Source: a virus | Lineage: Duplodnaviria; Caudoviricetes | DNA: 64,000 nt | IMG/VR virus record: IMGVR_UViG_3300031555_004524 | Location: 160,001-224,000 of that record | Reading direction: 5' to 3' (one strand) | In this document: positions 7,838 through 8,340 of the stretch, one piece after another | Numbering within the stretch: position 1 is the stretch's first letter | Layout: each line of letters opens with the position of its first letter | Notes under the pieces: generated by a model | What the model was told of the DNA's origin: nothing | Databases searched by the model: none | The model's input: only the letters and a program-made list of their open reading frames with translations | Made by a program: the position numbers and the translations under genes

Positions 7838-8340
7838 AATGAAAAAATGGTGACTTTTGAAATGGATTTACATTGTAAAATGTATATGACTTTTTCATTG
7901 GTTGATTTCTCTTTTTAGACATTTATACCGAATATATATTTTTTTAACTATAATGAACTGTACTTCATTATAGTTAATACGCATTATGATTACTTTTTCA
8001 TTTTTTTCTCATAGCTTTCATTGTTTGTTTGCCACCATTATTTTCATTTTGAAACATACGATATTGCCGATTACATTGATCGGATATAATTATATATACA
8101 TCGCATCAATTTTATTTGACAATAACTTTTCAGCTAATCGCATAAACACATTCAACAACTGCGTTGTGCACCATCTTGTGTTGACATGTATACATAGGCA
8201 CATAACACCTCCAACGAACGTAAAGCTTGGTATATTCTTTTTGGTGGCGATGACGGACACTTATATATAATTAAAATAATCGGCAATACATGGACTTACA
8301 TCGAGTAGATAGGGCCAGTACCTTAACGGGTACTGGTCCT
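7837..8340 (+). ncRNA. candidate ~500-nt structured late RNA
   Basis: promoter to hairpin unit; nested helices 8062-8073/8277-8288, 8087-8098/8262-8273, 8099-8109/8241-8252; 14-bp hairpin 7944-7977. Confidence 0.6.
8311..8340 (+). terminator. GC-rich hairpin
   Basis: 12-bp stem with a G.U pair favouring + strand; weak U-tail. Confidence 0.65.

Follow-up and report, generated by a model that had tools for sequence, protein, structure and literature searches.

The window analysed here, a stretch of 64,000 nucleotides, is positions 160001-224000 of a single virus contig (248,149 bases; 29% GC). A phiKZ-type RNA polymerase beta subunit is encoded at 646-5586; among cultured phages it is closest to those of Staphylococcus phage SA1, Listeria phage LPJP1, phiR1-37 and AR9/PBS1 (30-34% identity). 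The source is a 248-kb AR9/phiR1-37-like gut jumbo phage. DNA near-identical to the window is present in sequencing runs from animal faeces and sheep gut; the sequencing-run search listed no RNA data sets that carry it. The SD style and the affinities of the genes suggest a Firmicute host, and a search for spacer-like matches with 20 kb of query against 802 genomes found none. At 430-550, past the downstream end of the polymerase gene, lies a GGGG..CCCC hairpin accompanied by a long T-rich tract; it is kept in a relative (L013:3-98) and is possibly an origin or a protein site. A conserved unannotated ORF (6423-6584; 40-53 aa, KG-x-x-PK motif) is first in the operon and matches 78 related sequences, without a PHROG family. 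The ORF at 7114-7827 is a lineage-specific insert, absent from this place in most relatives, in which a domain of about 105 aa, widespread in gut Firmicutes and up to 77% identical to bacterial genes, is fused to a Cys/His-rich part. Elsewhere in the genome of the window phage (G000), very AT-rich gaps at 104972-105490 and 107246-107956 (L144) carry ATTCATTT and TAACTATAT words repeated at a spacing of about 35 nt, which are iteron-like and possibly replication or packaging signals. Intergenic sequences at L001:2250-3010 and G000 81449-81989 resemble group I intron cores by eye, the former with a TnpB-like HTH remnant (IStron-like).

The gap at 7828-8413 is occupied by a unit (7837-8340) without a credible ORF and is followed by the gene of a tail protein (3594 aa) that carries lysozyme and NlpC/P60 domains (Table 1). 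The late promoter of the unit overlaps the stop codon of ORF 7114-7827 and is of the AR9 type, for which the consensus AACA-N6-TA/G was reported (PMC5312081); the word is short and has 327 matches in the genome. The late promoter that serves the tail gene was found in nearly all related intergenic regions shown. In the predicted structure the ends of each domain are joined by a stem with a pair probability of about 1.0, of 16 bp in domain 1 (5' end 7837-7852 with 8033-8049) and of 12 bp in domain 2 (8062-8073/8277-8288). Overall folding z of domain 2 is -1.2 on the plus and -2.2 on the minus strand, and folding alone does not favour the plus strand of the unit; the RNA was assigned to the plus strand because promoter orientation, not folding, fixes the strand. 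A simple terminator scan did not call the hairpin at 8311-8345. Searches of Rfam (gathering score and hits with E<=10) and with ARAGORN returned no match for the unit, neither to 6S, SRP, tmRNA or RNase P nor to group I intron, GOLLD or ROOL RNAs. A 29-codon plus-strand ORF (7829-7918) begins one base past the upstream stop and ahead of the predicted +1; it has a gene-like codon score and no homologue.

Table 1. Features of the 7837-8340 unit, its surroundings and sister units (window coordinates, except for the tandem array)
Feature	Position	Strand	Remarks
Late promoter of the unit	7826-7837	+	AR9-type AACA-N6-TA; predicted +1 at 7837
Domain 1	7837-8049	+	about 213 nt, 48% U; folding z -5.2
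Seed 1	7890-7916	+	complement of A-rich leader + AUG AAA AAG; CAU 7896-7898
Hairpin within domain 1	7944-7977	+	perfect, 14 bp, AU-rich; pair probability about 1.0
Seed 2	7993-8013	+	complement of GAG-A6-AUG AAA AAG; CAU 7999-8001
Seed 3	8015-8034	+	UUUCAUUG...GCCACC; complement of GGUGG-N8-AUG AAA
Third UUUUCAUU copy	8041-8048	+	in domain 1 closing stem; unpaired 0.02-0.03, no free seed
Domain 2	8060-8292	+	about 232 nt; long interrupted closing stem, poorly structured interior
Seed 4	8201-8214	+	CAU-AAC-ACCUCC, strongest anti-SD; unpaired 0.70
Terminator-like hairpin	8311-8345	+	GC-rich, short U tail; homologous hairpin with compensatory changes in L013, L110
Second late promoter	8376-8387	+	serves the tail gene (start 8414)
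Sister unit	190-412	-	late promoter 412-401, 5' hairpin, U-rich tract with UUUUCAUU, terminator 192-218
Five-unit tandem array	G000 156017-156948 (L140:6017-6948)	-	late-promoter units of 110-190 nt with own terminators

Among relatives the gap upstream of the tail gene varies in length between under 100 and about 450 nt; in many cases a terminator and a promoter are all that it contains. The layout is most similar in L013 and L110 (identity of the N-terminus of the tail protein 53% and 60%, respectively), where a late promoter is followed directly by an RNA of 290-310 nt with predicted paired ends, and where promoter and terminator are both predicted at the same site. By inspection, the terminal stem of these two shows two compensatory changes, one consistent change and one mismatch, and the interiors cannot be aligned. 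L110 contains U7-CAU-N9-ACCUCU, with U7-CAU in a loop (unpaired 0.88), and the anti-SD that follows CAU reads CAU-C-ACCUCC in L013 and CAU-AAC-ACCUCC in the window phage. Sequence homologues of domain 1 or 2 were found neither at related loci nor in cultured phages, and IMG/VR pattern scans gave none or chance hits; exact seed 1 (27 nt) had no match in GTDB, and none of five genomes of gut Firmicutes contained a gapped seed pattern. In a strain variant 12 of 459 nt differ in the region, compared with 17 of 909 and 14 of 653 in the flanking genes, which amounts to no extra conservation. An earlier note on this DNA had read the region as a late phage RNA unit, and the AR9-type late promoter, the lack of an ORF and the terminator predicted from the sequence support this: 7837-8340 is probably a real late non-coding RNA gene, its transcription being suggested by promoter and terminator.

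Start-region complements within the predicted RNA

Four words in the RNA (seeds 1 to 4) are complements of start regions. All words quoted in the earlier note (seeds 1 and 2, 8201-8214, and the minus-strand unit at 190-401) are present; two copies, at 8015-8034 and 8041-8048, had been overlooked. The motif said to be shared by the loops does recur, UUUUCAUU occurring three times within 216 nt and nowhere else in the genome in this density, but it is absent from the 8201-8214 seed. TTTTCATT was found three times in 7837-8052 against 0.03 expected, the sole such stretch among about 9,900 in the genome (dinucleotide-shuffle p 0.0007; 0.035 if any thrice-repeated 8-mer counts). Part of this motif count is explained by self-pairing, because the copy at 8041 pairs with the RNA's own 5' end, which reads AAAUGAAAA.

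Within the complements read as ribosome-loading sites, the SD parts of seeds 1 and 2 are weak, reaching -2.9 and -5.8 kcal/mol vs. a median of -9.75 for real genes. The best SD+AUG complement of domain 2 exceeded all 300 shuffles, and domain 1 gave p 0.12. Unpaired probabilities were 0.37-0.46 for seed 1, 0.66-0.83 for seed 2 and about 0.7 at the CAU part of seed 3. The seeds are predicted to sit in multiloop or single-stranded linkers, not in hairpin loops, and the two stems proposed to carry the loops are not supported: the one at 7878-7924 consists of 6 bp and scattered pairs (pair probability 0.0), the one at 7985-8013 of 5 bp (0.2). We lean towards the view that the seeds were selected as mirrors of start regions.

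Similar units in the same genome and in related phages

Units were collected by a rule that takes no account of the motif: an ORF-less stretch had to begin with a late promoter and reach a strong hairpin after at most about 500 nt. In three relatives this rule also picked out tRNA genes, an outcome in favour of the promoter logic. The scan of the genome for such ORF-less promoter-to-hairpin units, which the earlier note had suggested, yielded 11 others, and their SD+AUG complements exceed dinucleotide shuffles (p 0.0017); the class-wide enrichment also exceeds a coding-strand null (p 0.0001). Most of the sequence of eight related phage genomes gave 26 units once one homologue, the tRNAs, small genes on the unit's own strand and units lying antisense to real genes had been set aside. 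These contain 7 SD+AUG-AA complements vs. 0.6 expected and 5 UUUUCAU words vs. 1.0, and a strict subset of 18 units with both neighbours co-oriented still contains 6 complements vs. 0.6, whereas 52 promoterless 3' UTRs and 96 post-terminator DNAs, used as controls, showed no enrichment. Predicted structures leave the seeds unpaired with a probability of 0.60, compared with 0.43 for the remainder of each unit (n 12, p 0.0015). A strong site is present in only 9 of the relatives' 26 units; with about one third so equipped, the class is therefore mixed.

The five-unit tandem array carries clear SD+AUG complements in three of its five units (enrichment p 0.001), and only one unit occupies this site in L145 and in L147, both relatives. 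In L145 the homologue of the sister unit at 190-412 has kept the U-rich tract and lost the CAU. Homologous units of G002 and G008 have drifted apart except for ACCUCCUU and a UUUUUCAUU word. Further conserved late non-coding RNA families were noted at G002 230123(-) and G008 27648(+), one of which keeps ACCUCCUU, and the long units of the G002/G003 type in L079, L085 and L086 form a conserved late family of about 480-530 nt. ACGGAAAC stands directly before the terminator in the G000 units 47015 and 156911 and in the window unit 401-190, with only six copies in the genome; it is a possible protein-binding word.

Proposed mode of action, targets and competing explanations

The exposed parts of the RNA mirror ribosome landing sites, as do those of unrelated RNAs in the phage group, and it therefore probably blocks the translation of some messages. 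The unit would be transcribed late by the phage's own non-virion RNA polymerase, as its promoter and terminator suggest. The long stems joining the ends of each domain probably protect the RNA and leave its pyrimidine-rich interiors exposed. According to the statistics of the class, these interiors would offer several start-region complements, CAU followed by a U/C-rich stretch or CCUCC, with a bias to AUG AAA. By pairing in trans, the RNA would then cover the SD and AUG of various mRNAs and keep the 30S subunit from loading, in the manner of csRNAs and through matches that would be generic and without gene specificity. It may be one of a fast-evolving repertoire in the phage group, to which the tandem array in the same genome would also belong. 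To the proposal that the RNA acts by such pairing on mRNAs, a trans block of SD and AUG, we give even chances.

The earlier suggestion of silencing by several seeds is upheld as far as start-region complements are enriched and exposed across the class, but no target in the phage itself rises above background. Neither duplex energy nor an in-register score nor BLAST against 1,589 leaders singled out an own-phage target; the pairing check against the phage's start regions, proposed along with that suggestion, turned out negatively, the best seed duplexes being no better than those at internal ATGs used as controls. The seeds fit own-genome starts better than foreign phage starts no more than by chance (0.54 and 0.47), matches of domains 1 and 2 to leaders score below those between unrelated real leaders, and long antisense matches to the unit in its own genome do not exceed 16 nt. 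As an inter-phage target, the G004 early leader matched by the array unit 156750 (46 nt, 85%) was rejected, 7% of unrelated leaders matching equally. AUG AAA starts are mirrored in 7 of 23 SD-selected seeds, and they head 12 of 224 own genes (5%) and 45 of 278 surrogate gut-Firmicute genes (16%). The fit of the seeds to early-gene starts is slightly higher than to late-gene starts (17.1 vs. 16.0, p 0.003), although the seeds are not independent. This weakly suggests host mRNAs and some early phage mRNAs, rather than late structural genes, as the likelier targets.

Possible, though unlikely, is a long 3' UTR or neutral insertion in which inverted or decayed gene-start fragments came to lie behind a promoter-like word and the seeds have no function. 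It would fit with the absence or shortness of the region in many relatives, with conservation in the strain variant that does not surpass coding level, with the shortness and frequency of the promoter word, and with an upstream operon that can read through to the unit's terminator. However, the promoter is placed exactly at the 5' end of the 16-bp closing stem, an arrangement repeated in L013 and L110 with compensatory changes, and the class enrichment outdoes the coding-strand null and is missing from the promoterless controls.

It is doubtful that the RNAs are decoys or scaffolds and that mRNA pairing is only incidental. In that case the U-rich single strands would soak up a toxin, a nuclease or a host RNA-binding protein, or would resemble the 3' end of 16S rRNA and so occupy an SD-related factor. 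That no specific target stands out, that the L145 homologue retains its U tract without CAU, that UUGUU(U)GGA words are repeated in L013 and that ACGGAAAC is common to three own units would agree with such a role, but U-richness is preserved in the shuffles, and the enrichment among the relatives requires CAU and anti-SD in the correct order and spacing (p 0.002), being stronger than for anti-SD alone (p 0.012). The site of the toxin MazF is UACAU. As a decoy for MazF the RNA was rejected: 6 such sites against 2.6 (post hoc p 0.04) are mostly paired and are not repeated in other units.

The RNAs might instead regulate particular phage genes, ORF 6423 or early genes, and not host genes, which we regard as improbable and count within the pairing proposal because the base-pairing mechanism is common to both. 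Over 6412-6430, where ORF 6423 starts, seed 2 has a gapped match in 19 of 20 positions, and in strain X7 a 1-nt deletion at 8001 would remove the gap; the slightly better fit of early starts points the same way. The match is not significant, however: at 29 bits it lies below the median for unrelated leaders, we rejected the cis pairing with the start codon at the head of the operon since about 50 related loci do not conserve it, and own-genome starts have no overall advantage.

It is very improbable that tiny minus-strand genes use the words as actual ribosome-binding sites and have the plus-strand RNA as cis antisense. ATG 8203 does have a strong SD before it, and the minus strand gives domain 2 a somewhat better fold. 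However, the frames concerned (37 aa from 8203, 48 aa from 7898 and MKK-stop from 8001; lengths in all 3, 7, 9, 37 and 48) lack a late promoter and reach an early-promoter score of 1.2 at best vs. 17-24 for most real ones; their codon scores of -0.11 to -0.18 resemble those of intergenic DNA (genes, 0.18), and they match neither a PHROG nor any homologue in a test in which the real 53-aa ORF (6423) matches 78 sequences. Decayed opposite-strand genes, which the earlier note had named among the outcomes that would refute its proposal, are thus unlikely, and a type I toxin-antitoxin or cis-antisense pair was rejected, no real small gene with a promoter being found on the opposite strand.

A wider form of the proposal that the RNAs pair with start regions is improbable: AR9-like phages would use a quickly renewed library of late RNAs, mimicking complements of generic Firmicute starts, for a broad shut-off of host translation. 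Tandem arrays and multi-seed precursors, cut from their end-closing stems, would supply the RNAs, aimed above all at AUG AAA, and the phage late genes themselves would avoid AUG AAA-like starts.

Comparison with known RNAs and significance

The csRNAs are CiaR-dependent sibling sRNAs of streptococci, host-encoded and 51-202 nt long, with a conserved nonamer and high mutual similarity, in which anti-SD and anti-AUG stretches lie unpaired between a 5' stem and the terminator; CAU is found in 53 of 61, and their additive repression of comC at the start of translation was proven by compensatory mutation (PMC3091779, PMC4507080). The window RNA resembles them in having siblings and in holding anti-SD and anti-AUG words in unpaired regions (about 0.7 for seeds 2-4, in predicted structure only). 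It differs in being driven by an AR9-type late promoter in a lytic jumbo phage instead of a CiaR promoter in a streptococcus, and in having about 500 nt with two end-closed domains instead of 51-202 nt with 5' stem-loop, linker and terminator, a layout which the shorter sister units of the window phage do fit. Furthermore, the csRNA siblings are highly similar whereas the phage siblings are unrelated in sequence, and there is no Rfam match to csRNA families. By analogy, the 7837-8340 RNA would thus work like a csRNA, yet it is no csRNA. Exposed C-rich anti-SD seeds, several per RNA or in several copies, are also known from RsaE/RoxS, RNAIII and Listeria LhrC; in contrast, the seeds of the window RNA are mostly U-rich and centred on AUG AAA, with only seed 4 C-rich, and lie in multiloop strands, not in hairpin loops.

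For AR9, two late starts with the same type of promoter as the window RNA were labelled 'tRNA' (207979, plus strand) and 'antisense g090' (75478, minus strand), with no such function assigned (PMC5312081, Table S3). The former opens a 490-nt gap without an annotated gene (KU878088.1 207979-208468; L315:4979-5468), the tRNA lying about 930 nt downstream, just past a start of its own at 208874. This gap is more than 99% conserved in PBS1-like isolates and contains CAU...CACCUCC and UUUUCAUUGG words, three seed-like words in all, a count that alone is not significant (p 0.14); it lies at a different genomic site from the window RNA and shares with it only short word-level similarity (17/19 nt, pairwise E 0.03). 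The RNA from 75478, predicted to leave a CCUCC at its very start unpaired, ranks second in step height in Table S3 (PMC5312081). In phiR1-37, misc_4 is an expressed ORF-less RNA of about 300 nt that adjoins the virion RNA polymerase beta gene in divergent orientation and for which host targets were proposed (PMC4848604). It is highly structured and has CAU and a C-rich tract at its 3' end (61640-61936; L338:4640-4936); its likeness to the window RNA lies in the layout and in the CAU and C-rich words, and it differs in lacking an AACA-N6-TA promoter in the gap, in its Gram-negative host and in the downstream gene.

The literature search found no report of AR9-type phage RNAs as start-site blockers. 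The earlier description as an undescribed system can therefore stand for these RNAs but not for the mechanism, which is of the streptococcal csRNA kind; the proposal is thus partly new, in the translation-block role for AR9-type phage RNAs. Described phage sRNAs come mostly from temperate phages (PMC12197685). AR9-like phages transcribe independently of their host, and how ribosomes are redirected late is the question that such RNAs would address. Cultured AR9, with Bacillus subtilis, carries a candidate analogue with a mapped start site, and the idea is therefore testable at once. If true, start-blocking RNAs driven by the phage polymerase would constitute a post-transcriptional layer of takeover in lytic jumbo phages.
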